Below, in pieces: positions 22,455 to 39,818 of a stretch of DNA of 64,000 nucleotides. The position numbers were made by a program, and so were the translations under genes. The notes beneath the pieces are model-generated. The model was not told the origin of the DNA and ran no database searches. It saw nothing but the letters and a program-made list of their open reading frames with translations. Positions within the stretch are counted from its first letter, which is position 1. Every line of letters begins with the position of its first letter. The DNA is from Candidatus Latescibacterota bacterium (GTDB lineage Bacteria > Latescibacterota > UBA2968), in NCBI GenBank assembly GCA_965207885.1, contig OZ242311.1, positions 5,344,001 to 5,408,000 of the forward strand. Direction: 5' to 3'.

Positions 22455-22997
22455 TCAAAGGCCGAGGATTTTGAGAAGCCTTTTCAATTCGTCGTCATAT
22501 CGAGCCGCCCGCTGTAAGTCAGATAAGGCGAAACGCCGGCTCAACTGATCCGCCGTCAGTTGTTTGCTGTACTCGGACCAAACTTTCCGAAGTTCCGCCT
22601 CCGCGTTGTTTACAATTTTTCGCCTCTCGTGTCCTTCATGTAGCCTGAGCAATAACCCTTCCAGGTTTGGACGCAAAAAAATGAGCTTTAATTTCTCCTT
22701 CGACGCCACACTTTGCGCGTCGCGTCCGGCCTGTTTGTCTTGTCTAATGCGGTCAGAGTCTAACAACACCAGCCTGTCGCTAATATCTCGCCTTCCGGGA
22801 TGTCTATTCAAGTAGCGGGCGGCTTCCTCGACAACGACTACTGAATCGCCGCCGTCTGCTGGCTTAGTGTCCAGATGCAGATGCAAACACTTCTCGTTGC
22901 AACAGTCTTGAAGGAATCTGACGAAGGCCCGGTCACTCGTCCCCTCAACCCCGATAAATATGACTCGCCTGCGTTCAACCCTGTAGCGACGCACCAC
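22455..22997 (-). CDS. RloB-like (TOPRIM-related) protein
   Basis: IFIGVEG.SD, LLDSD and P.LEGLLL.LH motifs; coupled to an AAA ATPase. Confidence 0.75.
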   Translation of the reverse strand: MVRRYRVERRRVIFIGVEGTSDRAFVRFLQDCCNEKCLHLHLDTKPADGGDSVVVVEEAARYLNRHPGRRDISDRLVLLDSDRIRQDKQAGRDAQSVASKEKLKLIFLRPNLEGLLLRLHEGHERRKIVNNAEAELRKVWSEYSKQLTADQLSRRFALSDLQRAARYDDELKRLLKILGL

Positions 22998-23000
22998 TTT

Positions 23001-24209
23001 TTAACCAATCTTTGGAATACCACCGAGCACTCCCGCCCGGTATTTGGGATAGAGACATGTATCTCGGCGGAGACCCTGCACATCTTGTGCGCCATGCACG
23101 CGAGTCGCGCCACTGCTATCCTTCTCGACGATAAAAATCTCCTCCTTTTCCAGATTATCGAGCAAGCCAACATTGTGAGAGGAAACAAAAAGCTGTGCGC
23201 CTGAAGGATTGACCTCTTGAGAGCGGAACCAGCTAAGAATTTCTCCGGCGATATCCACATGGAGATCGCCATCTATCTCATCGAGGACAGCAGGAACGCC
23301 ATGGCGAAGCGCGGTACCAATCTGAGGCAACAGATGGAACAGGCGTTTTGTCCCACTGGATTCAAGACTCAGGGGGATCGGCGTATCAAGCCCGTGATGG
23401 TCAAAGAACACTTCCTTTTCCCCAGATCGGTCAGAAATATTTATATCCTGAATTCCCAAATCACTGGATCGGATACGATTTCTAACCCAGGATTCCATAT
23501 CGGGATCGTCCTCAAATGTATCCATCACTGTTTGAGTCGGAGGCGTCCATCTCTCATGAAACATGATATTGGATGACCAAAGAAAATCTTCCATCCAGTC
23601 TGCAATACGCATTGCCAGAGGCACATTGAGCATGGCGAGCGTAGCGATCATCGATGAGTCTTTTCGAATAACTGCCTGGAGGCTATCATCCCTGAGCTTA
23701 AGACCAAATTCGCTGGAAACATATATAGGTTCTCCCGGGGCACCGCGCTCAAAAAGGCGCCGGGGGCGGCCCTTTGGGAAGTAGGACAAGGCTTCGTAAG
23801 AGAAGAAAGGATCATTGGAGTTAGCAGCACCGCATACCACCACCAACTCGTATCGGAACAACTGACGGATCTCGCCCAGCCAATCTGCTTCGAACTCCAT
23901 GCAAAATCGCTTCGGTTCGTTTCTGGTTTTCTTTGTCCAAAAGGGTAAAAAGGCCTTAATCGGTCCGGTCCTCTCAGTGGGGGATGCGAATGAGGCGATG
24001 AAGGCAGTAGCGACCAGCGCACTGAGCAATGTTGACTTGCCTGACCCATTGGGGCCTATGAGTACGACTACAGAAGGAAGCCGGATATCTGGCTTTGCTG
24101 TACTCTTTCGGAACCGCGGCAGGTCGGGGGCAGTTCCCGGAATACGCAGGTCAAGAACCACTTCTTCGCGGACCGAATGGAAGTTAGATATAGAAAATTT
24201 GTGAATCAT
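23001..24209 (-). CDS. RloA/AbiLi-like AAA_21 ATPase
   Basis: SNFHS, Walker A GPNGSGKS, ESSGTKR, Walker B VLDEID..LH, QLFVSSH, Y..G..GGIP; start placed at MIHKF. Confidence 0.88.
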   Translation of the reverse strand: MIHKFSISNFHSVREEVVLDLRIPGTAPDLPRFRKSTAKPDIRLPSVVVLIGPNGSGKSTLLSALVATAFIASFASPTERTGPIKAFLPFWTKKTRNEPKRFCMEFEADWLGEIRQLFRYELVVVCGAANSNDPFFSYEALSYFPKGRPRRLFERGAPGEPIYVSSEFGLKLRDDSLQAVIRKDSSMIATLAMLNVPLAMRIADWMEDFLWSSNIMFHERWTPPTQTVMDTFEDDPDMESWVRNRIRSSDLGIQDINISDRSGEKEVFFDHHGLDTPIPLSLESSGTKRLFHLLPQIGTALRHGVPAVLDEIDGDLHVDIAGEILSWFRSQEVNPSGAQLFVSSHNVGLLDNLEKEEIFIVEKDSSGATRVHGAQDVQGLRRDTCLYPKYRAGVLGGIPKIG

Positions 24210-24331
24210 ATTGAAATAATAACAACTTTTCGTTGAGATAGCAATATAATAGTCAAAAAATAACGGGATAATCAGTATCCCGCTCTTGTGGACTGATTGC
24301 CCCGTTCCGTGTGTAAAATCCCTTTGTATTC

Positions 24332-27300
24332 TCAAACTCGAGCAGTGTGATAGACCTCTTTGAGCAATGCGTCCATGATGAAATCGCGCAGAGCTTTGTC
24401 AGACATAAAATCATTAACGATCTTCTGGTTTCTGCCCTGTCGTTGAACAAATGCCTTCATCACCTCGGGTTCAAAAACCTGCTTAAACTGATCAATTGAA
24501 TTGGCCTGCGCCTGTTCTGCAAGACGTGAATTTCGCGCCATATCGCCTGAAATCTGATCAAATAGCAACTTATCCTCATCCGTCCAACTGGTGCCAAATC
24601 GCTCGTTAATCACTTCAATAATAGACGATAGCGGTGCGGTATGGTCATCCTTGGCCTTTGCCGTACCAACATCGCCCACGCCCTGCACAAAATCTTTGTC
24701 TCCCACCTCCAATGCCCCACTACCCGAAAATGTCATCTCGTTGCGGTAGTGTGAAAGCGCAACTTCGTCGTCGAGTTCCAACATCCCCTCGCCCGAACGG
24801 CGAGGCAATTTGGTGAACAAATGCCTCCCATACGCATAGAGCTTCTCCAACTCGGTATCCTGCCATTCGATAATCTGACTCAAACCATATAGCCGTATAA
24901 AGCTCTGCAAGGTACTTTTGAAAATCTCGCCTTCTTCCGTGTACGCTTCCCCACCCGAACCCGGGACACCGTAAGATTGCTTGAATCGCTCCACAGCGGG
25001 ATCAACCCATTTGTTGAGTAGCCCGTGATCATGCCTTGTTTGATGTGGTTGGAGCTTGAAATAAGTCAGGGCAAATTCCTCAATCTCCTCATCGCGCAGC
25101 ACAGGTTCGCTTTTCAGTCTTGCATCCAGCGTATAGAGATGATTGGAATCGGTCGGTTCATCGATCTCCGTCTGTTCGTAATATGGCTTGAACGCCTCTT
25201 TGATCTCATCAATCTCATTGGCAAAATCCAGCACAAATGTATCCACCTTCCCGCCTGCTGTGCGGTTGAGCCGCGACAAAGTCTGAACAGCTTTCAGGTC
25301 TGCCAGCCGCTTATCGACGAACATCGTGTGCAAAAGAGGTTGATCAAAACCAGTCTGATACTTCTCCGCAACAATCAAAATCTGATATTCGGGCGTCGCA
25401 AAATAGGCGGGCAATTCTCGTTCACTGATGCCGTTCATGCTCGCCTCTGTGTAATGCTTATCCTCGACATCTGGATCGACAACAGTTCCTGAAAATGCCA
25501 CAAGCGTTTTGAGATCAGTATATCCTCTTGCCGCAATATATTTGTCAAAAGCCTGTTTGTAGCGCACCGCGTGTAACCGCGAGCGCGTAACAACCATCGC
25601 TTTGGCTTTGCCATTGATCTTCTTGCGCGTGAAAGCGCGAAAATGCTCAACCATAATTTCCGTCTTCTGCGCGATATTGTGCGGATGCAAACTCATAAAC
25701 CGCGCAATAGCCCGCTTCGCCTTGCTTTCATCCACCTCGGGATCGTCTTCAATCGCTTTGGACAATTTGTAATACGTCCTGTACGTGGTATAATGCTTGA
25801 GCACATCGTGGATAAAGCCCTCTTCAATACCCTGACGCATAGCGTAAAGATGGAACGGCTGCGGATTGCCCTCTGCATCGCGCACACCAAACATTTCGAG
25901 CGTGCGGTGTTTAGGCGTAGCCGTAAAAGCATAAAAATTGATATTCGGCTGCGGTCCCCGGCGTTTGGCCTCCGCAAGAATCAAATCTTCCATATCGGGC
26001 GGATCTTCTCCCTCAGCTTCCTCAGCCTCCGCTTGCTCAAGCCCACCCAACACACCGCGCAAATTACTCGCACTTCGCCCACCCTGACTGCTATGAGCCT
26101 CATCCACAATCACCGCGAATGTCCTGTCTGACAGATCCTCCACCTTGCCCATCAAAAAAGAAAATTTTTGCAGCGTCGTAATGATAATCTTTGTCCCCTT
26201 ATTGAGTTCATCAGCCAGATCACTCGAATTGCGATCCTCATCAATTTTGACAACCACGCCCTGCTTGTGTTCGATCTGATAGATATTATCCTGCAACTGC
26301 TTGTCCAGATTGCGCCGGTCAGAAACAACCACAACCGAATTGAAAATAGGCGCATCCGCATCATCGTGGATACTGGCAAGCTGATGGGCAAGCCACGAAA
26401 TGGTATTGGTCTTACCCGATCCAGCACTATGCTGAATCAGATAATTGTGACCCACACCTTTGGCTCTGGTATCTGCGATCAGATTGCGAACAGCGGTAAG
26501 CTGGTGATAGCGGGGAAAAATGAGCGTTTCTCTGGTGGTAGTTTTGCGCGTGGTGACGTCGGCAGTCTTTTCCACATGAAGGTGGATAAATCTGTGGATA
26601 ATATCCAACCAACTATCGCGCTACCAGATTTCTTCCCAGAGATAGCCAGTTTTGTATCCCGTCTGATACTCGTGATCGCCTGGATTGCCTTTGCCGCCTC
26701 TGTTACCCGTGTTAAAAGGCAAGAAGAAAGTCTTATCACCCGAAAGCCGCGTAGTCATATACACATCATCGGTATCAACGGCAAAATGCACCAGCGCACG
26801 TTTTTTGAACTGGATAAGGGGTGTTCTAACGGTAGGAACGCGGTCCTTGATATATTGCTGAATAGCGTGACCCGTACGCTGTCCAGTGAAAGCGTTTTTG
26901 AGTTCAACCGTAGCAATGGGCAGACCGTTAAGCGACAAGAGCATATCTATCGAATTATTGCTATCCAGATCATAACGCACCTGTCGCGTCACCGTGAGAC
27001 GATTCTGATTATAGCGTTTTTCTGTTTCAATATTCAGACGAGTTGGCGGACGAAAATACGCCAGACGCAGATGTTTCCCCCGGTCACGCACGCCATTCCG
27101 CACCACATCGAGCAACCCGCGCTTATCGCACTCAGAGGCAATCCGCTTGACAACTGCCTCCTCCACCGCGCTGCCATAGCTCCTCTTGAGCGCGTCCATT
27201 GTATCGGGCTGCGTCTCATTGAGAAATGCGAGCAACGTGTGTTTATCCAGACCGAGTGCCGGATCGAACTGGCGACTATCAGCTTTGGCATATCCAGCGC

Positions 27301-27364
27301 GATCTACCAGCCACGCTTCAATCGCGTCCTCAAAGTCTTTTTCAGATGTGGATTTGCTGGTCAT
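24332..27364 (-). pseudogene. hsdR: Type I restriction subunit R interrupted by an in-frame TAG (26621-26623)
   Basis: Nuclease motif ID...NGLPIATVELK and helicase motifs HSAGSGKT, DEAH, FTATP, TGFDQP. The frame reads LWEEIW*RDSWLDII straight through the stop. Confidence 0.92.
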
Positions 27365-27501
27365 TGTGAGAGCTCAAGAAATATTCAAAAAAATGAGACC
27401 TCATCCAAGACCGTACAAACGGTTTCGGACGGGCCTTTTTCTCAAACCGTGTCATCTGCAGAGGCAGATCGGTTAGCCAGAACTTGAAACAAATAGAAAC
27501 T

Positions 27502-27930
27502 CTATGTATTCTCTTGCAAGTACCGAAGGATACCTGCCTTGATCTGATTTTTATCCGAACTGTTCAGACATAGCTGTTCTAATTTATTCTTTATCTCGGT
27601 TGCATCCCGCAATACCTGTTCAACGTTACTATTTTTTTCAACCAAAGTATCATTGAGAATATAATCAGCCTTTCGGCGCCAACCATGAAGGCTCCTGATC
27701 TTCTCACCCAATTTTTCCACCTCCGTAACCCCACATCCACAAAGAGAATTAAATACATTTCCGTGTGCGCTGGCCCCTCCCCCCACTCGCCCACCTAAAG
27801 CCTGGATAACGTTGGCCCCTATATGATGTGAAGCATAATAGGCGCGGCTAACAGCAGTCCGTTTCTTAGCTGGTGAAGCGGAACCTTGTGCAAGATCAAG
27901 TGCTAAATTGAAAAATTCATTTGGATCCAT
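27502..27930 (-). CDS. HEPN-domain protein (putative RNase toxin)
   Basis: RTAVSRAYYA and L...RRKADY motifs. Confidence 0.8.
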   Translation of the reverse strand: MDPNEFFNLALDLAQGSASPAKKRTAVSRAYYASHHIGANVIQALGGRVGGGASAHGNVFNSLCGCGVTEVEKLGEKIRSLHGWRRKADYILNDTLVEKNSNVEQVLRDATEIKNKLEQLCLNSSDKNQIKAGILRYLQENT

Positions 27931-27933
27931 TGA

Positions 27934-28548
27934 CTATTCCGCAATATCCAAAAGAAGTTGGAAATGTGCTCTTGCCTCTGCTGGAACCTCCTCAACCCAG
28001 GTATCAAGAAATATGTCATAAAAGTCATTAATTTCTTCTGGGTCACCCGAGACCGAGAATAATACCTCAACAAAGACATCTTCAGATTCATCATCTTCTT
28101 GAAGACTGAATTCTCTACCCTCTAAATTTGGGAAATAGCTCTCAAGAAGCCCGGGTATCTTTGAATACCACTCTGCTATGCCTTTTTCTATACAAAAAGC
28201 CTCTATAGCATCAATTTCATTAGCATCAATTTCATCAAAATCAGAAGGATGGATTGAGGGATAAATCGTATCTGCAGGGGAAATAAATACGGTAATAATA
28301 TCTCTTTCAGCAGCCAAAATTTCTGCCCAAGGCCCAACAAAGTCCAGTGTGCTATCAACACCAGAATTTTGTGCCAAAGGTGACGCAATTTCCTCAATGC
28401 CGCAGTCAGAAGTTCCGGAAAATCCCCTCCATCTTCTTCGCAGAGAAGGATCGAGTTCAGGCCTACGAGGTTCAGCCAGAAAATCAGGAGTATCTGTACT
28501 CAGAAAATATTGCTCTGCTGAAACTGAAGAATTTCTATTCACCTTCAA
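27934..28548 (-). CDS. Acidic hypothetical protein, putative antitoxin partner of the HEPN protein
   Basis: Very D/E-rich; overlaps the upstream gene and ends 3 nt before the HEPN start. Confidence 0.6.
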   Translation of the reverse strand: MKVNRNSSVSAEQYFLSTDTPDFLAEPRRPELDPSLRRRWRGFSGTSDCGIEEIASPLAQNSGVDSTLDFVGPWAEILAAERDIITVFISPADTIYPSIHPSDFDEIDANEIDAIEAFCIEKGIAEWYSKIPGLLESYFPNLEGREFSLQEDDESEDVFVEVLFSVSGDPEEINDFYDIFLDTWVEEVPAEARAHFQLLLDIAE

Positions 28549-29326
28549 AACTCCTCAATAAATCGCCCTCAGAAAATTTCACGAACCAATCGTGAGTGAT
28601 CTCATGAGCGGAATCTAACCAATTCTCAAGCCCTTTGGGTATAATGGGGACATCGTTTCCTGCAGACTGTACAGTCGTGTGCCAAATAATTGATGGACAT
28701 TCATTACCATCCTTCTTTGCGTTTCCAGTTGCAAATAGCACAACCGCCTGACCTTTCGGTTTATTGCATGGAAAAGATACTTCAAATTTAAGGGACCGGG
28801 GTTTATACTCTATATGTCCACCTTCCAAGCCATCGGGTAACGTGATACCGACCTTTAGTTTGTCACGCAGAAATTGTCTCACATCCTCTCTTGTGTGGTC
28901 AAATTGAATAGCATCAATATATTTGAGATAGATACTTACAGGTTCAAGTCTTTCTTTTTGTGGATATGCTGAGTAGTAATATTCTACAGCTTCCAGAACA
29001 TCTGTCTTGAAATGCGACCAAATATATTTTGATGTTTCATTAAAAGTGAAAATTCCAGGACCGACTTGAATCACAGGCCACCCGTCCTGCTGGGTTCTGA
29101 AACGATGTTGGACAGTGTAACCAGCCATTTCATCTGGAATATGAGCAGAAGGAAGAGGTTCATAATAAGGAAACTTACCCTCAATCTGACCATGCAACCT
29201 CCCCAAAAGAAATTTGTAATCAAAGGACTGTTCCTTTTCTTGTTCTGGCAACCGCCACCGAATCTCTACATAAGCCTCAACTAAAGGCTTATTCTTCAAA
29301 TCTTCATAAGACTTCAAGGAATCCAT
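28535..29326 (-). CDS. TIGR04255-family protein
   Basis: LKNKPLVEAYVEIRW, IQVGPG.FTFN..Y.W..F, I.LKYID and WLDSAH motifs. Confidence 0.78.
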   Translation of the reverse strand: MDSLKSYEDLKNKPLVEAYVEIRWRLPEQEKEQSFDYKFLLGRLHGQIEGKFPYYEPLPSAHIPDEMAGYTVQHRFRTQQDGWPVIQVGPGIFTFNETSKYIWSHFKTDVLEAVEYYYSAYPQKERLEPVSIYLKYIDAIQFDHTREDVRQFLRDKLKVGITLPDGLEGGHIEYKPRSLKFEVSFPCNKPKGQAVVLFATGNAKKDGNECPSIIWHTTVQSAGNDVPIIPKGLENWLDSAHEITHDWFVKFSEGDLLRSFEGE

Positions 29327-29475
29327 ATATAATTTCCTGATAGTTTCTGGCCTTAGCTCGTCTAGTCCGAAAAAATTGAGCAAATTGCGTGCCAGAAAGA
29401 TGATTTTTAAAAATTGAGAGACAAAATAGTGCTTGTTTAGATACCGGTCAATATCTTTCCGTTATAATCCGAACA

Positions 29476-29736
29476 TTAATTTTCTGCTGGCAATATCTCG
29501 TCCCCACGGCGCGGTGGCTCATCGCCCGCTGTCTTCAGCAAACTACCAAACGCCTCCAAATCTGCGCGTGTAGCGCGTTCCTGAAAGTAGCGAACCGTCC
29601 GCAAAGCAGCTAACTTCTCCGCTACTGCCACGTTAATAAACTGGTTGAGCGTTGTACCCTCTTCCTCCGCCACCTTTTCCGCCTCAGCTTTAAGCGAGGC
29701 AAGCAGGCGCAGGGTGTAATTACTCATAGTAGCCAT
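29476..29736 (-). CDS. RHH/HicB-like antitoxin (orphan)
   Basis: YTLRL..SLK.EAEKVAEEEGTTLNQFINVAVAEKL ribbon-helix-helix signature. Confidence 0.8.
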   Translation of the reverse strand: MATMSNYTLRLLASLKAEAEKVAEEEGTTLNQFINVAVAEKLAALRTVRYFQERATRADLEAFGSLLKTAGDEPPRRGDEILPAEN

Positions 29737-29763
29737 AATTTTCTAATCAGGGTCTATCGTACT

Positions 29764-32700
29764 TCATTCAGCACGCAGTCGGATGAGAAGGGGCCAAAAC
29801 GCCTTGGCTTGTGAAACTGGCAACTCTTTACAAAAGCGTCGAACCATAAATTCGAGATTCGGTATGTTATCTTTCCATATTTCGATAATTTGGCTCAATA
29901 TTTCTACAAAATGAGTAATCGTTTCCTGAGATTGCAGACCTGCTGCAATAGAAATGTCAACTGCTGCGTCAAACGCAGTTAGTAAGCGCTCTCTTTTTAA
30001 CATAGCGTTCTCACTATTATCGGTAGGCCCTTCTGGAGATTCCTTTTCTAAATACTCAACTATCTTCAATAGCTCTGACTTTAGATGATTACTGATATCT
30101 TTCGTACCAACTTGCTTGGCCTGAAGGATAGCTGCATTTAGGGCGACATGGCCACCGTTTGCATCTTTCTGATACATATCCGCAAATTCCGTTTGAAGTA
30201 TGATTTCTCTAATGGTATCTCGGAAATTCTCGTAGGGAGGTAAATCACCTAATATTGCCTGGATATATACCCACGGAGACCACTCATTATCTTTCTGTCT
30301 TAACCTTTCTACTGCCGCAGCTGTGATTTTTTGTAATGAAGCAGTGGTCAGTTGTGTCGCCATTTCTTTATCTAATAGACTTGACAAAGTTTCGCCCGGA
30401 TCCTTGCCGAGAAATGATTGCAGTTTATTTTGTGCTTGGGTTGAGTCTAAGAGTAGCTGTGGAATAGGGACAATCATATTTTCAACTGATCGAAAACCCT
30501 GATCACGAAATAGACGCTTGAGTTTTCCGTCAACAAAAACATTTGCTTTATCCCCAATGCTATAAGACAAACCATGAAATAAGAACGATATGTCTTGAAT
30601 CCGAGCCGGATGAGCAATATCGTACCAATAATCAGATTTTCGTTCAAATATCTCAAAAGGGAGTCTCTTATTGCTTAAATCCTTAAATGTCTCTTCAAGC
30701 CATGCATCGGGAGCACCCAAATCTGAAAATATACGATATAGCTCATTAGCATGTGCCCAGACCATAAAAAGTCGAATGTGGGAGGGCAATTGCCGAAATT
30801 CGGACCAATGATAGAGTTCCTCATTCGACCACTTCAGAAGAGATAAAAAAGCTGAAAGTTTCGTCTTTCCTTCATCACTAAAGAGATTTCGGATAATTTT
30901 CTTTCCCAACCGCCAGAATGCAGATTGCTCATCACCAGCCTGAATCAACAGATGCACAAAATGGATCTGTGTTAAGGGCGAACCAGCAGTTCTTGAAAGT
31001 TCTTTAATTAAAGTATGTTGTTCTTCATCAGGTAAATCCAAAACAGCATTTACCAATGCCTGGGAAAGGGGAATAGGAAGATTGGAAAAACGCGATATTG
31101 CTGTTTTAATCCCTTCATCTTGTATCAATTCACTTGTCTGGCTTTCCAGCCATTCATGCAGCTTTGAACCCGCCTCAACATCAGTTGTCAACCTGTAATG
31201 TCTTAGTAAACCTTCAGTACTTGGAGGACGCAAATCAAATATAGGAAAATCCGGTTGGGTCTCTATGTATTTATAAAGTTTGGAATAATAGACCGCAGCA
31301 CTGTTTTTGACCCAAGAACGGGCTTTTTCAATTCTTCTGCCTGGTTCTTCAATAGAAACGATTTCTGCAATCGCTTTCTCAAATGTCTTCCTGGGGCAAT
31401 CAAACCAGGACCTGTTCCGACGCAGAACAGCCTCGCGTTCTTCAGACGACTCGAGCAACAGTTCCAAAGTAGCCTCTGAAAGCACCTTTTCTTCTGTTCC
31501 CGGTTCATCAAGACAAATGGCTTTATTGCCATTATCCAACTTGAATGGGATAAACTTAACTTCTCGATCTCTTTCAAGTGTGGAAAGGATAGCCTCACGT
31601 CCGTTTATTGCCTCAGAAGAAGCCTCAAAAAATTCATCAGGGTCAAAATGCAGACCAAAAGCCTTAGCAAAAGGACGTAAACTGAAACCAATTTTTGCCA
31701 TAAAATCGGTATCACGCCTTAATTCCTCACGGATAGGATCAGGCAAGTCATTATATAAAAATTGCAATAATTTCACGGTGACGTCTGCTGTATCTTTATC
31801 AAGTTCCTGATCCAGCATAGACATTAGAGATATTTTCAGGACATCAGCAACCTCTACAATAAGATTTGGGTCCGCTTCAAATTTGTTATGCAAAAAAGAT
31901 TTGTATAACCAATCATAATATACAGTCCGCTGTTTTGGACGACCATTTTCATCTTGCTCGTGAAGAAATGATATTGCGCCGTCAATTAGTCCAGAAAAGG
32001 TCATTGCCGCCAGTTGTCGATCATTCTGAGCGGGCTTCTCCTGATCAATTGTTTTAAATAGACCTTGTAGTTCTAAATATAAGTTGTCAATCAGCCAGTT
32101 TGACTGTGCAATGCACTTCTCCTTACTACTTTCCTCTCTCCACAGACTCACAATCGTGCGAGGAATCACAAGTGCGAGATTAAGTACGAATGCAATCTCT
32201 CCTTCCTTGTTTGAAGTGTTTTCAGGCATTGGGGGGAACTGTAGAATGTTTTTCTCCAATAGACAAGCGGCAATATAACGCCGAAAAATACGAAGTTCCG
32301 GTGTCTCTGTAAGGAAGCCATTTTCATCCACTCTGGCTCGAGATAGATAGTAAAGAATTTCTTCCTCTTCAATAGGAATAAATCGAACATTAGCAGCGCG
32401 TAGTTTGGTGATTATGTTGTAATATTCTGAATCAGGTATAGAACCGCTACTCACAAGACCTTTCAAGACTTCGTTTATACCAATGATAGGAATTTCGCCA
32501 CTGTGAAAATAGCCGTTCACAAATCTATCATCAGACCAAATCACATCACCTTCGCTTGCCTTGAAGCTTAATAGGTCGCTCAAAAGTCTTTCTGAGAGAT
32601 TCTGTTGATCCAGTACCTCAGCCTCCTCATTTCCCTCATAAGGTATCACCTCATAGATTCCACTGTCTATGCCATCGCGAATTCTGTTTATTAGCCTATC

Positions 32701-35118
32701 AAGCCAGTTGATTAAGTCGTTTCTTCGTCTATGAATTTCTAATTCAGAACGTACAGAGTCGAGTTCCGGTTTTTCCAAATAAACATCAAAATGATCGCAA
32801 ACTGTGCGAAGCATATCTGATTCTGCGAGGACATGTGCAATACCTCGATTTTCTAAGAAGATACGCCTTCCCTGCTGCGGAATTACGCCATTGGGATTCT
32901 TCTGGCCTTCCTCACCCAATTCCTTAAGTGTCTGTTCATACTTCTCTTTTGATAGCTGTCCCTGTTTATCAAGCGAATCGACAAGGGCACGGCAATTTAC
33001 AATGTATTTGTGTGCTTCATCCGGTAATGTTGGAGGACCACTCATATCCTGCGTAGTCAAGCGAGAAAAACAGACTACGTACCCATTTTCTCTGCATGCC
33101 CTTTCAAAAACTGCCACCCAGTGTTCACCCATTTCTTCAATCAGTTTCGGGTTGCTATCCGACAAGGGCGTCTCATATTCCCAGATATTCAGCAATCCTT
33201 CACTTTCTATATCAATTATCTGGTTAGCAATTTGCAACCGTGAAGGTTGATGATGTGTCAGTTCGTCTTTAATTCCCAGCAGACAGGGGACAAGAGTTTT
33301 AGGTATTCTTAACGGAGCAAAAGTGTCCTCAACTTTAGATAGAATATCCAAATGGGCAGCCAAAAGAACGGCGGTGATATCCAAATTGAGACGCCATTGT
33401 GGTTTCTTACTGAGATCAAAGTCAACTTTTCGCCCTCCATGTCTTGCAAATAAATAGAATTGATTTCTCGGATCTGGTGCTTTTGCATTTTCACTTAAAC
33501 CGTAATGAAATAGTTTTAAGAGTGCTCCATTTAACTCTTTAGCAATGATATGAATAGGAAGAATTCCTTGATCATAAACATCTTTCATTTCTTCTATATG
33601 CTCTCTTCGCTGTTTAGCAAATGAAATCATATCTTGAAGATCTAAGAGAGTGACCCCACCTTGTCTGCTGTCTCCCAGTTTTCGCATCCTTATTAAAAAC
33701 GGGTTAAGTTCCTCACCCTCATCTAATCCAAGTTGAAAGCCTAAATGAACTATCTCGCTAACCTGATCATCAGACACATCTTCAGAAACAGCCTTTTTCC
33801 AAAAAGAGATGGCGAGATCGCTATCTTCCAATTTTACTAAATAGGCGATTCTGAGTAAGTCTTGTTGCGTTAGATCGGGTAATTCTCTGTGTTGGCGTGC
33901 AATAATAGCCAATTTTTTAAGATTTCCTGTTTCATGGTAGAGACCCATTAAAGCAAGCAAATTGTCAGCATTTGGTTCTTCTTTTACAAGGTCCTCAGCC
34001 TCTTTAATAGCTTCTGAAACATCTCCAAGCATATTTTGGCAACTCACCCTGAGTCTTCTTAGGTCATTAGATAACACACCAGCTTCAAACAGGTCTCTAT
34101 TGCTATCCAATAAACTCAGACAGATATCAAACTGATTGCTATTATGGTAGGCAATAGCTGCAAGTCTTAATGCTTCAGGAGTTCCAATTCCATCTATGAG
34201 TTGCTGGCTTTTTTCTGCCACATACTCCCAATTACCTTGTTCTCCCATCAGACTACAGCAGTTAAAGAGAAAAGACATATCACCCGTTTCTTCGTAAGCG
34301 TTTTCTAAAAATTCAACAAGCGGTTGCCAATCATCGTTTTTGCGTGCAATAGCCTGAAGAGCTATCATTTTTTCATAATAGAGATTTTCTTTTTGGCTAC
34401 TTTGATCAATGACCTTTAATGCAGATTTTGGATCGTCGTTAGCCATCAGTGACTTCACATAAAGAGAAGTCCAAACTCTAATTTCCTCTTGTGACTTAAA
34501 TCGAGACTCGGAATTGTCCAGTAATTCGATGGCCTCTGTTATTTTTTGCGATACAAGTTTACAGATCACCAGCGAGATCACATGTGATATATCAGATTTT
34601 TCTTCTACTATGATGGAGCTTAATGCTTTCTCACTTGGCTCAAGATCAAGTCCATAATTGCGATGTGTTGCCCATTCTATGGCTCGGAAATCTGTTGGGT
34701 CATATTGGAGTAGTTCTCGACAATAATCTATTGCTTCCTCCTGTTTATCAGGATCATTCGCAAGACAAGCAAGATACCAACATTGCAATATCTTCTTTTC
34801 CTTTCCATCTTCAGTTTCTTCAGAAAGCTTCTTAAATATTGCTGCCGCTTCTCTTAAACGTATTAGACTATCATCATCACGCTTGATAAATAACCAGCTT
34901 ACAGGCTCAGGCCACTGAACAAGCCGGTCTGGCAGAGCAACAGGCGAAAGAGCACTAAAATAATTAATTATTGCGGCTGTCTCTCTCTCGATCTTTCGAT
35001 CTGGTTCTTGCTCTAATGCCTTACTTATTTCCAGCCGTGCTTGTGCAAGGTTCTTCAATAGAAGGTTCCCAAGAGCCTTGAGCCGATATGTTTCAGAATT
35101 TGGTTTAAGTTTGGCCAT
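29764..35118 (-). CDS. Very large TPR + PIN-like domain protein (putative defence sensor/effector)
   Basis: N-terminal helical TPR-like repeats; PIN-like LNLDITAVLL and IWSDDRF motifs; AT-rich; ATG 35118 follows GAGGA. Confidence 0.7.
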   Translation of the reverse strand: MAKLKPNSETYRLKALGNLLLKNLAQARLEISKALEQEPDRKIERETAAIINYFSALSPVALPDRLVQWPEPVSWLFIKRDDDSLIRLREAAAIFKKLSEETEDGKEKKILQCWYLACLANDPDKQEEAIDYCRELLQYDPTDFRAIEWATHRNYGLDLEPSEKALSSIIVEEKSDISHVISLVICKLVSQKITEAIELLDNSESRFKSQEEIRVWTSLYVKSLMANDDPKSALKVIDQSSQKENLYYEKMIALQAIARKNDDWQPLVEFLENAYEETGDMSFLFNCCSLMGEQGNWEYVAEKSQQLIDGIGTPEALRLAAIAYHNSNQFDICLSLLDSNRDLFEAGVLSNDLRRLRVSCQNMLGDVSEAIKEAEDLVKEEPNADNLLALMGLYHETGNLKKLAIIARQHRELPDLTQQDLLRIAYLVKLEDSDLAISFWKKAVSEDVSDDQVSEIVHLGFQLGLDEGEELNPFLIRMRKLGDSRQGGVTLLDLQDMISFAKQRREHIEEMKDVYDQGILPIHIIAKELNGALLKLFHYGLSENAKAPDPRNQFYLFARHGGRKVDFDLSKKPQWRLNLDITAVLLAAHLDILSKVEDTFAPLRIPKTLVPCLLGIKDELTHHQPSRLQIANQIIDIESEGLLNIWEYETPLSDSNPKLIEEMGEHWVAVFERACRENGYVVCFSRLTTQDMSGPPTLPDEAHKYIVNCRALVDSLDKQGQLSKEKYEQTLKELGEEGQKNPNGVIPQQGRRIFLENRGIAHVLAESDMLRTVCDHFDVYLEKPELDSVRSELEIHRRRNDLINWLDRLINRIRDGIDSGIYEVIPYEGNEEAEVLDQQNLSERLLSDLLSFKASEGDVIWSDDRFVNGYFHSGEIPIIGINEVLKGLVSSGSIPDSEYYNIITKLRAANVRFIPIEEEEILYYLSRARVDENGFLTETPELRIFRRYIAACLLEKNILQFPPMPENTSNKEGEIAFVLNLALVIPRTIVSLWREESSKEKCIAQSNWLIDNLYLELQGLFKTIDQEKPAQNDRQLAAMTFSGLIDGAISFLHEQDENGRPKQRTVYYDWLYKSFLHNKFEADPNLIVEVADVLKISLMSMLDQELDKDTADVTVKLLQFLYNDLPDPIREELRRDTDFMAKIGFSLRPFAKAFGLHFDPDEFFEASSEAINGREAILSTLERDREVKFIPFKLDNGNKAICLDEPGTEEKVLSEATLELLLESSEEREAVLRRNRSWFDCPRKTFEKAIAEIVSIEEPGRRIEKARSWVKNSAAVYYSKLYKYIETQPDFPIFDLRPPSTEGLLRHYRLTTDVEAGSKLHEWLESQTSELIQDEGIKTAISRFSNLPIPLSQALVNAVLDLPDEEQHTLIKELSRTAGSPLTQIHFVHLLIQAGDEQSAFWRLGKKIIRNLFSDEGKTKLSAFLSLLKWSNEELYHWSEFRQLPSHIRLFMVWAHANELYRIFSDLGAPDAWLEETFKDLSNKRLPFEIFERKSDYWYDIAHPARIQDISFLFHGLSYSIGDKANVFVDGKLKRLFRDQGFRSVENMIVPIPQLLLDSTQAQNKLQSFLGKDPGETLSSLLDKEMATQLTTASLQKITAAAVERLRQKDNEWSPWVYIQAILGDLPPYENFRDTIREIILQTEFADMYQKDANGGHVALNAAILQAKQVGTKDISNHLKSELLKIVEYLEKESPEGPTDNSENAMLKRERLLTAFDAAVDISIAAGLQSQETITHFVEILSQIIEIWKDNIPNLEFMVRRFCKELPVSQAKAFWPLLIRLRAE

Positions 35119-36160
35119 TTGATTCATCCTCAAAATCCAAAATTTCTAAGCCTTCCTCAAAGCGACCGAGCATAAATAGAAAAGTTGCTCTCAGGTTGAG
35201 ACTGTCTATATCCTCCTGATTATCCAGAACGCTGACTGCCTCTTCAGGTCCTTTTTCGTAACAGACGATCCACGCATGAATGCGAATTTGATTTTGTGAA
35301 GGCATGAGGGTCCGGGCTTCATCAGCCAATTCCCGAGCGCGACTAATGTCGCGATTTTCGTCCAATTCGATACCAGCCTCAAAAAGAAGCACATCGGCTT
35401 TTACTTCTGATGACAGAAAAGGCCATTTACCATTTCTTAAACCTTCCAGCCATTGCTTTACTTTCGACGTATGACCTTCCTGCCATTCCCTACGCATACG
35501 TTTAAGCTGTTCTGCCGTGTCTTCCGATGCTTGTCCTGATAGCTGGTTTATTTGATTTTCTAATGCTGATGTTATAACAACAGACGGTTGAGTAGCGGTA
35601 TTTTCCACAACTGACGATGGAGGTGTTAATGTTCCACATATTTCTTTTGTCCAGTGGTCGGAAGGATGTAAATAAGAACCTACAATCCCTGGATGAGGCC
35701 GAAGCTTATTGCGAATTTGAGCGGCTGACCACACTTCATAATCAATCCCATACTTTGCAAAACACTTCGTCTGTTTCAATATTTCTTGTTGGCGATTTGT
35801 TTTGCTAAGATCACAGGCTACAAATAATATGAACCGTTTGACCTTGCATTTAGACCAGTGACTGTCCCAATGTTTAAAAAATTCATCCGATACATCTCGA
35901 ATTTGATAAGGAGAAAAATCTCTGTAACATTTACACTGACCGAGTTCTATTTCATCCGTATTTTTTCTTTTCGCTATGAGATCTATGCCCTGCTGTCCTT
36001 CGCCGCGCACTCCATAAATTTCACAAGTTGCGACAGTGTCTTCTTCAAAAAAAAGATCTCGACAGAGTTCTTGGAATACAAACTCGTCTATTTCATGAAA
36101 AGGAGGAACTTGACCGGGCCTGATACCAGGAGTCATATTGGGTATGGAGTTGCCCGTCAT
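35105..36160 (-). CDS. Restriction-endonuclease-like (PD-(D/E)XK, Mrr-like) domain plus TPR start; probably the N-terminal part of the giant protein
   Basis: FQELCRDL...YGVRGEGQQGIDL...GQCKCY motif; the C-terminal TPR helices continue in the next ORF after a one-base shift. Confidence 0.75.
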   Translation of the reverse strand: MTGNSIPNMTPGIRPGQVPPFHEIDEFVFQELCRDLFFEEDTVATCEIYGVRGEGQQGIDLIAKRKNTDEIELGQCKCYRDFSPYQIRDVSDEFFKHWDSHWSKCKVKRFILFVACDLSKTNRQQEILKQTKCFAKYGIDYEVWSAAQIRNKLRPHPGIVGSYLHPSDHWTKEICGTLTPPSSVVENTATQPSVVITSALENQINQLSGQASEDTAEQLKRMRREWQEGHTSKVKQWLEGLRNGKWPFLSSEVKADVLLFEAGIELDENRDISRARELADEARTLMPSQNQIRIHAWIVCYEKGPEEAVSVLDNQEDIDSLNLRATFLFMLGRFEEGLEILDFEDESNGQT

Positions 36161-36235
36161 ACTATTTCCTTATTAATCCACGTTAATTGTGTCTGCCGTT
36201 ATAACATAGCGATTCTATGTACATCTTTCAAGGGG

Positions 36236-37459
36236 CTATACTGCGTTCCGCACATCAATCTTCCCTGTCACCGCAGCGGAAATCAGTGCGGTTCGGCGTT
36301 CTTTGAGCAGCTCAATCGCCGTTTCACATTTTTCAATGAGAGTATCGATTTTCGCGATTTCTTTGTCGAGGAAGGCGATGATTCGCTTTTGTTCTTTGAG
36401 TGGGGGCACGGAAACGATACAGTTACCGATGAAATCCCAATTTGCCCGAGGCATCTTTGCCCCATAAGTTTATGAATCAACCACTTTGATAAATCCATCG
36501 GTAAGCAGTAAGTATAGCAATAACCGGCGATCAAAACTCGTACTCTTGAAAACCAGAAGTTCTGTTGAACACAAGCCTTCAAAGTCTGGGTTACAGGCTT
36601 TGGCGAGATATGGCCGAAGTTTGCCAAATAAGGTCATCCCTTTACCAAAACGATTGGCAACACTGGTTGGAACAACATTTGGGTCAATAGGCAGTAGTTT
36701 CCCTGTCCAAGACTGGATATTCTCCAAGCCGACATACGGCAAAGGCTTTTCTCGGTTGGCGTCAATTTTTTGGTCTGTCAACTGAACACAAAATTTAAGC
36801 CGCCGCACCTCCCAATGCTCCGGCACCTCTCCCAACCACTCAACCCCACTGTCTTTCATCTTCACATTCGTGTTCAATCCTCTGGTAACGGCATGTGAAA
36901 TGATCGCTTGCCGCTTTTCCTGAAGCAGTGTGATCAATTGCTCTTGCTTGTCAATGAGGGTGTCAATATTCGTCGTTTCTTTGTCGAGGAACGCGGCGAT
37001 TTGTTTTTGTTCTTCGAGTGGCGGATACAAACCTATCTGTTGATAGGCATCCTCGCGATTGAGACCAGGTACTATCGAGTCTTTGGAAACGGCATCTAAT
37101 TGTAATAAACCAAGCAGGTAGTAAAGCCAGCGGATATTTGCGGTCGTGTATCTGCTATCCACAAAAAATGTTGTATCAATCGCAAACGCTGAATCTGATG
37201 AGTAATTTACCTTCCCAAAAGAACCTTTACGACCAATGATAATGCAAGGTGCGGTCGTGTTCGAGAACGAATGTAATCCTACGTGCCCGTTTGATCCATA
37301 GACAGGAACATTACCTTCTATCCGCATTTCTGAAGGCAGAGAATCTCCGTATGCAAAGCGACAGATATACTTTAATTGCCGCACCGCCCAATGCTTCGGC
37401 ACCTCTCCCAATCCCTCAACTCCACTTTCCTTATATTCTGCATACTTCCGAAAACTCAT
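36236..37459 (-). pseudogene. hsdS: Type I specificity subunit S interrupted by an in-frame TAA (36470-36472)
   Basis: Two TRDs, [14 protein letters not shown] and [15 protein letters not shown] conserved regions. The frame reads VVDS*TYGAKMPRANWDFIG...PPLKEQKRI...ALISAAVTGKIDVR. Confidence 0.92.
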
Positions 37460-37494
37460 GCTTCGTTCTCCTCAACGGACTCGCATTACAAATC

Positions 37495-37518
37495 GGGCAA
37501 GGCATGCCTCGCCCCTAC
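37495..37518 (-). repeat. GTAG-family REP palindrome
   Basis: Minus strand GTAGGGGCGAGGCATGCCTTGCCC. Confidence 0.75.
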
Positions 37519-37796: not shown

Positions 37797-39818
37797 TCAC
37801 CCATTCAAAATCCCTCCAACCGTTTCAACAATACCATCCGTCACACCTTCAATCATTTCAACAATACTATCCGTCACACCTATCAAATCCGCACCAATCT
37901 CATCTAACGGGCGGGGCGGTTTGAACACGTAGAAATATCGGTTAAAAGGAATTTCGTAACCCACTTTGGTCTTGCTGTAATCTATCCAGGCCTCCGGCAC
38001 ATGGGGCTGGATTTCGCGTTCGAAATACGCATCAATATCCTCCCGCAACGGCACATTCTCATAATCGCGCAAATCGGGATCGGGTTCTGGCTCGCCTTTG
38101 CGGTTGGTACAAACATCAGCGGTCTCATCATACTCGCTCAAGGATTGATAAATCAACTTCAACTGAGCCGTAGTAATATTCACTTGCGCCCCTGTAAAAG
38201 CATCCGTAAGAATGCGAATGAACGCATCGCGGTTTTTATACTGACAATCACCCTCAAGCGTACCCAGAACCTCGAGAACGCGCTGTTGCTGTTCTTGTGG
38301 CAAACGGGTAAAGCTCCTCGCCGACTCGAGAATCTCAATACGATCTTCACACACTTGAAAATTGCGCTTGAGCGGGCGCTCAATGGTGATGCGCTGATAC
38401 CCGAAATCAACATTGTCAAAAATCTTCACGCGATCCTGTACATCCTCAAAATCGCCAAACAATTGCGTAATCTCCGCGATCTGTCCATCGGAAATCTCCT
38501 TGCGCTTGCTACCCAGGCTCTGGATCATCGCAACGTGAAAATCTGCGGCATTGATCAATTGCACTTTACCCTTGCGCTGCGGCGTCTTCTGATTCGTAAT
38601 AATCCAGATATAGGTCGCAATACCCGTGTTGTAAAACATATCCGTAGGCAGGGCTATAATCGCTTCCAAATAATCATTCTCAATAATCCAGCGGCGGATC
38701 TCGCTCTCCCCACTCCCCGCGCTACCCGTAAAAAGGGGTGACCCATTGAGCACAACAGCCAGACGGGACAAATCGCCATTCTGATTGAACTTTGAAATCA
38801 TGTGCTGCACAAAAAGCAAAGCACCATTGTCAACACGCGGAAGCCCTGCGCCAAAGCGTCCCCTATAACCGAGGTGATTGGCTTCGTCCTTGATCTCGGA
38901 TGCCACCTTCTTCCAATCAACCCCAAACGGTGGATTGGACAACATATAGTCAAACTGCCCATCAGGAAGACCATCTTCTGTAAAACTATTGCCGGGATGG
39001 ATATTTTTTGCATCCTGTCCCTTGATCATCATATCTGACTTACAAGTCGCATAACTCTCATCATTCAACTCCTGCCCATACACAATCAAACTGGCTTCTG
39101 GGTTGAGTTCCCTGAGATAATCCTCCGCAATAGAAAGCATCCCTCCCGTGCCACACGCCGGATCGTACAACTTGCGAATAATACCCCGTTGGGTAAGCGC
39201 GGCCTCATCCTCTAAAAACAGAAGATTGACCATCAACCGGATAACTTCACGAGGCGTAAAATGCTCGCCAGCCGTCTCATTACTCTGCTCGGAAAACCTG
39301 CGGATGAGTTCTTCAAAAATATAGCCCATGTGCAGATTGGAAACGCGATCTGGATGCAAATCCGCCTGTGCAAAGCGGCTGACAATCAGATAGAGCAAAT
39401 TATCCCGGTCAAGCCGCGCAACCTGCTCGTGCAACTTAAAACGATCAATAAAAATATCACGCGCATCATACGAAAACCCGTTAATCATATTATTCAAATT
39501 AGCAGCAATATTGTCGGGATCGTCCAGCAACCTCTCAAGGGTAAACGGACTTGTATTGTGAAAATTGTGCCCACTCGCCATATTGAGCATGGTCTCGCGC
39601 ATCGTATCGTCGATATTCTCGGGCAAGTTTTTCAACTGCGCCTGCACAGCGTCTTTCGTCGGCACCAACACGCAATCGAGCCGTCGCAAAACCGTGAACG
39701 GCAGCACCACCTTTCCGTACTCCGATTGTTTGTAATCACCCCGCAGAAGTTCCGCAATGGACCAGATAAAACCGATATGTTCACCAAAATCTGCACGAGT
39801 GCTCGAATTATTTGTCAT
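37797..39818 (-). CDS. hsdM: Type I R-M methyltransferase subunit M
   Basis: GEHFTPREV, YDPACGTGGML and NPPFG motifs; uninterrupted frame. Confidence 0.96.
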   Translation of the reverse strand: MTNNSSTRADFGEHIGFIWSIAELLRGDYKQSEYGKVVLPFTVLRRLDCVLVPTKDAVQAQLKNLPENIDDTMRETMLNMASGHNFHNTSPFTLERLLDDPDNIAANLNNMINGFSYDARDIFIDRFKLHEQVARLDRDNLLYLIVSRFAQADLHPDRVSNLHMGYIFEELIRRFSEQSNETAGEHFTPREVIRLMVNLLFLEDEAALTQRGIIRKLYDPACGTGGMLSIAEDYLRELNPEASLIVYGQELNDESYATCKSDMMIKGQDAKNIHPGNSFTEDGLPDGQFDYMLSNPPFGVDWKKVASEIKDEANHLGYRGRFGAGLPRVDNGALLFVQHMISKFNQNGDLSRLAVVLNGSPLFTGSAGSGESEIRRWIIENDYLEAIIALPTDMFYNTGIATYIWIITNQKTPQRKGKVQLINAADFHVAMIQSLGSKRKEISDGQIAEITQLFGDFEDVQDRVKIFDNVDFGYQRITIERPLKRNFQVCEDRIEILESARSFTRLPQEQQQRVLEVLGTLEGDCQYKNRDAFIRILTDAFTGAQVNITTAQLKLIYQSLSEYDETADVCTNRKGEPEPDPDLRDYENVPLREDIDAYFEREIQPHVPEAWIDYSKTKVGYEIPFNRYFYVFKPPRPLDEIGADLIGVTDSIVEMIEGVTDGIVETVGGILNG

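Follow-up and report, generated by a model that had tools for sequence, protein, structure and literature searches.

A probable naturally split, two-gene form of an effector-TPR-GreA/B-C-PIN conflict protein inside a type I restriction-modification operon

The closest described systems to the locus reported here are the effector-TPR-GreA/B-C-PIN conflict proteins, a kind that is already known, from computation only, through the work of Kaur, Iyer, Burroughs & Aravind (eLife 2021; PMC8195603, Fig. 2K and EAD10 section). As set out in that section, a constant, fast-evolving region comprising TPR repeats, a GreA/B-C domain and a new version of the PIN domain is preceded by one of about 13 variable N-terminal effectors, a restriction endonuclease (REase) among them, and the genes are 'mostly standalone', with few conserved neighbours. 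The protein is predicted there to engage hijacked RNA polymerase (RNAP), with the PIN cleaving the extruded transcript and the N-terminal effector acting as a suicide arm. Here, we analysed a 64,000-nucleotide stretch of contig OZ242311.1 from a Candidatus Latescibacterota bacterium (assembly GCA_965207885.1; hereafter, the window), in which two overlapping open reading frames (ORFs) on the minus strand, ORF A and ORF B, are likely to encode a naturally split, two-subunit form of such a protein. We found no description of a split two-gene form in the portion of the 2021 paper that deals with this family, and its source data may list such cases.

Two other groups of systems resemble the A-B pair in part. 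The Avs/STAND NLR-like proteins are immune proteins that combine a repeat sensor with N-terminal effectors (REase, TIR, protease and others) that can be swapped. The pair shares with them a variable N-terminal effector followed by long helical repeats, as well as effector exchange between close relatives; it differs in that its constant part holds a helix-turn-helix (HTH), PIN-like units and a GreA/B-C-like domain, and profile searches detected no NTPase domain in A or B. Polymorphic toxins and cassette systems likewise pair toxic modules, which are exchanged rapidly, with a conserved part for docking or delivery. Unlike these, A and B appear intracellular, the unit of exchange is a whole small gene, and neither a secretion signal nor an immunity gene was identified for the pair. 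The PIN systems DS-3 and DS-5 of DefensePredictor, as presented in the part of that source that concerns them, are different proteins from A and B. To our knowledge, no structure of the effector-TPR-GreA/B-C-PIN family has been solved.

ORF A occupies positions 35105-36160 of the window (minus strand, 351 aa), and ORF B runs from its ATG over positions 29764-35118 (minus strand, 1784 aa, MAKLKPN...); the product of ORF B is identical to database protein P0001 (labels P, L, G and X denote database proteins, loci, genomes and sequencing runs). The ORF listing extends the frame of B to 29764..35133 (1789 aa from a TTG), and the start at the ATG at 35118-35116 is common to all close homologues. 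At the junction (35105..35133, minus strand), a Shine-Dalgarno sequence, GAGGA (35131-35127), is placed 8 nt upstream of the B ATG, and the TAA of A lies at 35107-35105. The stop of A and the start of B thereby overlap by 14 nt, ATGGCCAAACTTAA, with B in the +1 frame relative to A. This stop/start overlap, together with the Shine-Dalgarno sequence, strongly implies translational coupling of the two genes. A sequence-only reading of the stretch had described the overlap and the GAGGA-N8-ATG exactly as we find them, and had proposed that the pair is either a natural two-subunit version or a protein disarmed by a frameshift; the shared start, the intact partner genes, the free-standing A-like proteins and the docking prediction reported below speak for the former.

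Profile matches and alignments place ORF B in the effector-TPR-GreA/B-C-PIN conflict system (PF24407, PF24388, PF20698). In particular, residues 494-563 (33430..33639, minus strand) match HTH_upst_double_PIN (PF24407) with an E-value of 5.2e-18 and 65.6 bits against a cut-off of 27, and the family is found in 21/21 aligned homologues. This match, together with the EAD10 section cited above, bears out the suggestion of the sequence-only reading that the locus has a computationally predicted effector, TPR and PIN architecture. Altogether, 112 proteins match ORF B. Homologues of 2000-2340 aa cover 99-100% of it and begin with trypsin (PF13365), TIR (PF13676), PNP_UDP (PF01048), GT4-conflict (PF20706), HNH-like or REase domains; fused 2125-aa 'hypothetical proteins' are present on conjugative plasmids of Allocoleopsis franciscana PCC 7113 and Nostoc sp. 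C052. Like the single-chain conflict proteins, B is homologous to the whole constant region (31-46% identity, about 100% coverage), follows the order HTH, double alpha/beta region and GreA/B-C-like domain, is associated with a listed effector (REase), and has a sporadic, island-like distribution. In contrast to them, the locus places the effector, along with the initial ~165 residues of the constant region, on a separate, translationally coupled polypeptide instead of fusing them to the remainder.

The split is shared by many homologues. Of the 94 homologues that reach 1750 aa or more, 24 have a start no further than 3 residues from the B methionine, 64 are fused and 6 have short extensions, so that a comparison at the junction, which the sequence-only reading had asked for, recovers single-chain and split homologues alike. 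The split homologues begin with the pattern M-x-x-L/I-K/R-P-N-A-E-T and range from 87% down to 32% identity to B, while the fused ones carry 200-600 extra residues and the short extensions comprise 41-160 residues. The start of B recurs in 12 other database sequences of the window's clade, which come from other assemblies.

Upstream DNA was inspected in seven metagenome loci (L006, L007, L008, L009, L012, L014 and L016). In L006, L007 and L009 (46, 44 and 41% identity), there is an intact REase gene (346-349 aa from the first ATG, 349-365 codons from stop to stop), the stop of which overlaps the B start by 14, 8 and 14 nt, respectively. In L012 (33% identity), an HNH-type small gene is separated by a 5-nt gap from the large gene. 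Loci L008 and L014 are fused, as are all three full-length genome loci (L022-L024; Bacillota including Desulforudis and Desulfofundulus). The copy in the remaining locus, L016 (710-2521), is of the fused type; its REase part is interrupted by an in-frame stop, its match to B is much reduced in length, and it looks decayed.

The small partner is also found by itself. A total of 1542 representative proteins match ORF A. Among A-like matches of 193-615 aa, 50 of 89 are free-standing proteins of 335-380 aa with 35-100% identity, which terminate a few residues past a common LxF motif; several free-standing A-like proteins lie on contigs equal in size to those of split B homologues. The best 150 representatives matching A comprise 84 fused proteins (at least 1900 aa) and 10 proteins of 320-400 aa, the rest being fragments or of other lengths.

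A tree of the constant region (94 sequences, 1780 columns, FastTree with LG, midpoint root, the six short-extension rows treated as unknown) requires a minimum of 8 changes between the split and fused states, compared with a mean of 21.3 and a minimum of 16 in 500 label shuffles, a comparison that shows clustering only, related sequences sharing labels. Specifically, the fused protein P0008 (2127 aa, 80% identity) is nested in the otherwise split clade of the window, and the fused protein P0019 is sister to the split protein P0020, each with a support of 1.0. A fused counterpart of ~2130 aa, as envisaged by the sequence-only reading, thus exists in P0008; the single-base difference postulated with it does not hold, as the window junction carries about 7 extra bases relative to P0008, as inferred from protein comparison.

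ORF A is composed of two parts. Residues 1-185 (35606..36160, minus strand) form a putative Mrr-type PD-(D/E)xK nuclease, the variable effector module. Residues 57-131 match Pfam Mrr_cat_2 with 24.8 bits against a cut-off of 22, which upholds the earlier call of a PD-(D/E)XK domain in A, and Mrr_cat is matched with an E-value of 0.002. When the Mrr-like fold families PF13156 and PF04471 were considered, both a profile match and the D...(E/Q)xK core were found, consistent with membership. In 12/12 aligned free-standing homologues, residues D60, G74, C76 and K77 are invariant, and E72 and Q75 are nearly so. A nuclease domain like that of A also forms the N-terminus of ~2100-aa fused homologues. 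The PADLOC match for ORF A reaches 13 bits only. Across 61 genomes of relatives, full-length A is present in G000 only, with four weak REase-only matches in other proteins. In the same genus, loci L002 (G008) and L003 (G004) have REase domains 28-30% identical to the N-terminus of A, which begin open frames of 1663 and 1673 aa that are not B homologues; the same type of effector may be attached to another giant protein there.

Residues 186-351 of ORF A (35108..35605, minus strand) form a helical, TPR-like docking region and correspond to the first part of the constant region in single-chain homologues. Homologues of this segment give weak ANAPC3/TPR Pfam matches, and a profile comparison links it weakly to the coatomer-epsilon TPR (E 0.0075); beyond weak TPR matches for the tail of A, the profile searches of PDB sequences gave nothing meaningful. 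The equivalent of A186-351 is kept behind unlike effectors, namely HNH (P0019), REase (P0026) and a transmembrane peptide (P0307, P0312 and P0320). Because this equivalent follows the HNH and REase domains in fused proteins, the cut between A and B lies inside the constant helical array, about 165 residues in and between helical repeats.

Four small proteins (P0307, P0312, P0320 and P0316) share the docking segment of A (66-79% identity) and have, in place of the REase, an N-terminal hydrophobic, transmembrane-like helix and a low-complexity linker. The C-terminal tails of P0307, P0312 and P0320 (..NGEN, ..NDDT) are the exact out-of-frame reading of the N-termini of the large proteins P0007 (MAKIK) and P0009 (MTTLK). 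Because the tails match the shifted reading and the contigs are of the same size, P0307 and P0320 are inferred to be upstream partners of P0007 and P0009, respectively. REase and transmembrane-peptide small subunits pair with large partners that are about 80% identical, and parts of A-like sequence are carried by a TIR protein (P0306) and an HD-CE protein (P0159). These sequence comparisons strongly imply that the small subunit is an exchangeable cartridge among close relatives of B, and the P0307-type small subunits may represent a membrane-acting effector cartridge for the same sensor.

Complex prediction points to how the two polypeptides could fit together. A186-351 and B1-480 gave a score of 0.73, compared with 0.00 for the best of three controls; the score mark was reached by 58/80 solved complexes and 2/110 mismatched pairs, a rough calibration only, since our own alignments were used. 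The runs share at least 81% of contacts, with a partner predicted local distance difference test (pLDDT) score of at least 81 and a pLDDT of 89-90 for the B1-480 chain. In the predicted interface, residues 318-344 of A contact residues 4-21 and 38-43 of B, and the solenoid continues across the junction. The models suggest that the C-terminal helices of A dock on the N-terminal helices of B, which would rebuild the single-chain architecture.

The remainder of ORF B follows the layout of the constant region. Residues 1-480 (33679..35118, minus strand) form a TPR-like helical array, for which all TPR matches fall below the Pfam cut-offs (TPR_14, 22.1 against 23.5 bits; TPR_2, 18.7 against 27; TPR_19, 18.5 against 25). 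In 21 B homologues, TPR families are matched at E-values of at most 0.1 in 5-13 cases per family, including TPR_2 in 13, TPR_14 in 12 and ANAPC3 in 8. Downstream of the HTH, residues 579-960 (32239..33384, minus strand) comprise a pair of alpha/beta units, which make up the putative 'double PIN' region. The first, unit 1 (about 579-705), is the probable equivalent of PF20698, and unit 2 (about 855-960) holds an invariant WSDDR. PF20698 is matched at E-values of at most 0.1 in 7/21 B homologues, matches homologue P0068 over its full length directly after the HTH (26.4 bits), and is found on 24/30 named matches in an Atlas feature search. The LDITAV and WSDD motifs, first noticed from the letters, are conserved: N578 and D580 (LNLDIT) and D863, D864 and R865 (WSDDR) are invariant in 21/21 aligned homologues, and D580, E597, E662, E672, D863, D864 and E883 are invariant or nearly so. 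AlphaFold2 (AF2) models of B566-965 (pLDDT 81.7) and B490-1330 (pLDDT 76.4) contain two beta-alpha-alpha-beta units and a small beta-rich domain at residues 1151-1213.

This small domain (about 1151-1213; 31480..31668, minus strand), in which the strands have a pLDDT of about 77-89, lies at the position of Permuted_GreAB-C (PF24388). The family is matched at E-values of at most 0.1 in 10/21 B homologues, and homologue P0049 scores 40.1 bits at an equivalent distance from the HTH. The mainly helical C-terminal region (residues 1214-1784 and stop; 29764..31479, minus strand) can be aligned from end to end in 21 homologues, many of its residues being invariant, and has no named domain, there being no Pfam, NCBIfam or PADLOC match; no PADLOC model matches any part of ORF B. 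A scan of genome contigs with B by itself returned no loci, and the scan repeated with an alignment returned five, all fused or partial. Across 168 genomes of the phylum, B is present in G000 only, plus a contig-end fragment in G067. Four other matches in the phylum (L029-L032; G057, G005, G110 and G035) cover the HTH and the PIN-like part only, in frames of 900-1400 aa with E-values of about 1e-20 to 1e-24; the HTH-double-PIN module thus seems to occur in other architectures within the phylum.

Several points weigh against this interpretation, or against parts of it. In ORF B itself, PF20698 scores 13.6 bits, below its cut-off of 27.8, and PF24388 (residues 1156-1179) scores 16.1 bits, below its cut-off of 27. 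Foldseek searches against the PDB recovered no PIN, either with the 400-residue model of B (best E-value 0.18) or with the 841-residue model (helical-repeat noise, nothing at an E-value of 0.001 or lower). When compared by hhalign with 15 VapC-type PINs (PF01850) encoded in this genome, unit 1 reached a probability of 0.1% and B840-965 one of 16%, neither being significant. The PIN (RNase) assignment of B is therefore putative and follows the Pfam family name; the fold search proposed in the sequence-only reading recovered no PIN for B, and the REase of A is supported by its Pfam profile. Furthermore, the docking score is a model confidence rather than a measurement, and the halves of split proteins tend to pass such a test; the pairing of P0307 and P0320 with their large partners draws on contig size and frame logic. 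The nonsense codons in the neighbouring hsdS and hsdR raise the prospect that the island is decaying, with A-B intact but idle. Finally, our literature search found no bench work on the family, and both a defence role and an RNAP/RNA mechanism for A-B are conjecture.

The geometry of the junction would also suit a programmed +1 ribosomal frameshift, by which some or all ribosomes would make a fused 2130-aa protein. The frame of B is +1 relative to A, the shift would take place at the stop codon of A, a geometry comparable to that of prfB, where a +1 frameshift occurs at a stop codon, and the overlap is conserved in L006 and L009. However, the codon before the stop is ACT in the window and in L006, GCT in L009 and GTC in L007, none of which re-pairs in the +1 frame, and the two genes of L012 are 5 nt apart. 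In addition, all split forms possess an in-frame ATG at the corresponding residue, preceded in most cases by a purine-rich stretch. That the overlap is conserved follows from the N-terminal pattern of B, M-x-x-L-K/R, since the Leu-Lys/Arg codons read as TAA or TAG in the frame of A. A programmed frameshift is, on this evidence, very improbable.

The location of the pair raises a further alternative, namely that A-B is a dedicated guard of a type I restriction-modification (R-M) system. On the minus strand, the gene order is hsdM (37797-39818, which looks intact), hsdS (36236-37459), ORF A, ORF B, four small ORFs (29476-29736, 28535-29383, 27934-28548 and 27502-27930), hsdR (24332-27364) and an AbiLi-like AAA_21 ATPase (23001-24335; PADLOC AbiLi, E 9e-58). 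The sequence-only reading was right in calling the block AT-richer than its surroundings (GC content of 0.38-0.44 over 27500-36500 versus 0.47-0.56 in the flanks); it had also placed the block between hsdS and hsdR, which is where it lies, with the four additional ORFs (27502-29736) separating B from hsdR. Both hsd genes are interrupted, hsdS by an in-frame TAA at 36470-36472 and hsdR by an in-frame TAG at 26621-26623. Past the TAA, the hsdS frame continues for 77 codons, which still give a match to Methylase_S at its C-terminal end (22.2 bits, cut-off 22). In hsdR, the TAG separates HSDR_N, on its upstream side, from SWI2/SNF2, ResIII and T1R_D3, which follow downstream in the frame of HSDR_N; the matches to TIGR00348 span positions 47-156 and 235-671, and a blastp comparison of Desulforudis HsdR with the read-through hsdR of the window aligned the motor domains, not across the stop. 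The independent contigs listed for the region end short of the hsdR TAG and the hsdS TAA. Judged from these frames, the restriction function of the operon is probably lost or altered.

Suicide nucleases linked to R-M systems do exist, the anticodon nucleases PrrC and RloC being associated with type I R-M operons, and A-B resembles these in being a putative suicide nuclease encoded inside a type I R-M cluster. A guard of this kind would act as a backup upon blocked restriction. In its favour, A-B lies between hsdS and hsdR, and a homologue in Desulforudis (L023) lies two genes downstream of hsdR. L023 is, however, the only other locus near hsdR, and the neighbours of other homologues are varied, including Gabija-like genes (L014), a lone N6/N4 methylase (L007), a histidine kinase (L009), a periplasmic binding protein/transporter gene (L012) and plasmid partition ParAB (L048), in line with the few conserved neighbours noted in the EAD10 section of PMC8195603. 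Unlike PrrC and RloC, A and B have no ABC-ATPase or anticodon-nuclease domain detectable with Pfam, NCBIfam or PADLOC, R-M linkage is not conserved across the homologues, and the R-M genes here contain stops. Run X5, which derives from a related organism, covers the ends of hsdR and hsdS at a depth of 160-345 and A-B at about 4, a weak comparison drawn from contigs only, which suggests that the type I R-M operon exists without the A-B insert in that organism. The guard role assigned to the pair by the sequence-only reading is accordingly not borne out, and we regard it as hardly likely.

The stops in hsdS and hsdR, the varied neighbourhoods of the homologues and the X1 and X5 contigs fit a variable cargo slot between hsdS and hsdR rather than a functional guard. 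In run X1, a variant of lower depth, roughly 10-14% divergent, joins 27388 directly to 29752, without the four small ORFs; the block at 27389-29751 is therefore an insert in its own right, which a co-occurring variant lacks. The ORFs of this block encode an 86-aa protein with weak ribbon-helix-helix/HicB-like matches, a 282-aa TIGR04255 protein, an acidic 204-aa protein and a 142-aa protein with an R-x5-H motif, which has no profile match and which we take to be reminiscent of HEPN. On the other side of hsdR, the segment at 22455-24335 comprises the AbiLi-like ATPase followed by a 180-aa ORF without a family; this segment may represent an additional defence system, situated at the island's edge.

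A third alternative holds that A and B are the remains of one ~2130-aa gene, which a recent frameshift would have turned into a disarmed pseudogene. Single-chain proteins do make up most of the family (64/94 full-length B homologues and 84 of the best 150 A representatives), a fused relative exists at 80% identity (P0008), and the neighbouring hsdS and hsdR are interrupted by stops. Against this, the break point is common to homologues from 87% to 32% identity with both frames intact, the catalytic residues are kept in the A-like partners, the break yields an ATG that is suitably spaced from a Shine-Dalgarno sequence, and small subunits with other effectors have a like tail geometry. Because the same break point occurs with intact partner genes in homologues down to 32-46% identity, the A-B split is not a recent disabling frameshift, and the frameshift option of the sequence-only reading finds no support; the chance that the pair is a pseudogene appears slight. 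An assembly or sequencing error has next to no probability, even though the genome is a single contig and long-read assemblies can carry indel errors, since the junction departs from that of the fused form by about 7 nt and not by a homopolymer slip, 12 other sequences of the clade from other assemblies share the start, and a Logan contig from public run X1 (1477 nt, depth 135), which may be from the same sample as the source genome, is identical to 34862-36338 with zero differences and zero gaps.

Other public runs touch the region as well. In metatranscriptome run X22, contigs that are 1-14% divergent map to 26077-29368 and 36222-36370; no contig covers 29840-35983, so the run is silent on A-B expression. 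In sponge metagenome X6, short contigs are identical to scattered parts of 26000-37500, which suggests that the organism or a near-identical strain occurs in that sample.

If A-B is a naturally split two-subunit conflict protein, as we consider likely, the complex could serve as an anti-phage or abortive-infection device. Following the proposal of Kaur et al. (2021), B would engage RNAP through its GreA/B-C-like domain and cut RNA with its PIN-like region, and the REase on A, unleashed on DNA, would provide a suicide or backup arm. The position of the pair inside the type I R-M operon would then reflect insertion into a variable defence-island slot and not a functional partnership. A more far-reaching possibility, which we consider doubtful, is that the cut itself is a functional design, in which the cartridge (REase, transmembrane peptide, possibly TIR or HD) would be held inactive by the docking of its TPR helices on the giant sensor, sensing of RNAP or a phage protein by B would release or reorient it to kill the cell or cut phage DNA, and the at least 8 switches between the split and fused states would reflect selection for fast effector swapping. 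If true, this would constitute a two-component activation principle, so far undescribed for repeat-sensor immune proteins.

In practical terms, pairs like A-B should not be annotated as frameshifted pseudogenes. The two-gene form offers a handy entry point to the family, as the 39-kDa effector can be produced, mutated and exchanged independently of the 200-kDa sensor, and vice versa. With relatives at 80% identity occurring naturally in fused and in split form, controls are already at hand, and the natural cartridges with different effectors on near-identical docking helices permit a direct test of modularity. The effector-TPR-GreA/B-C-PIN family is widespread, and sensing of the state of RNAP, if true, would be a new way for bacteria to sense infection.

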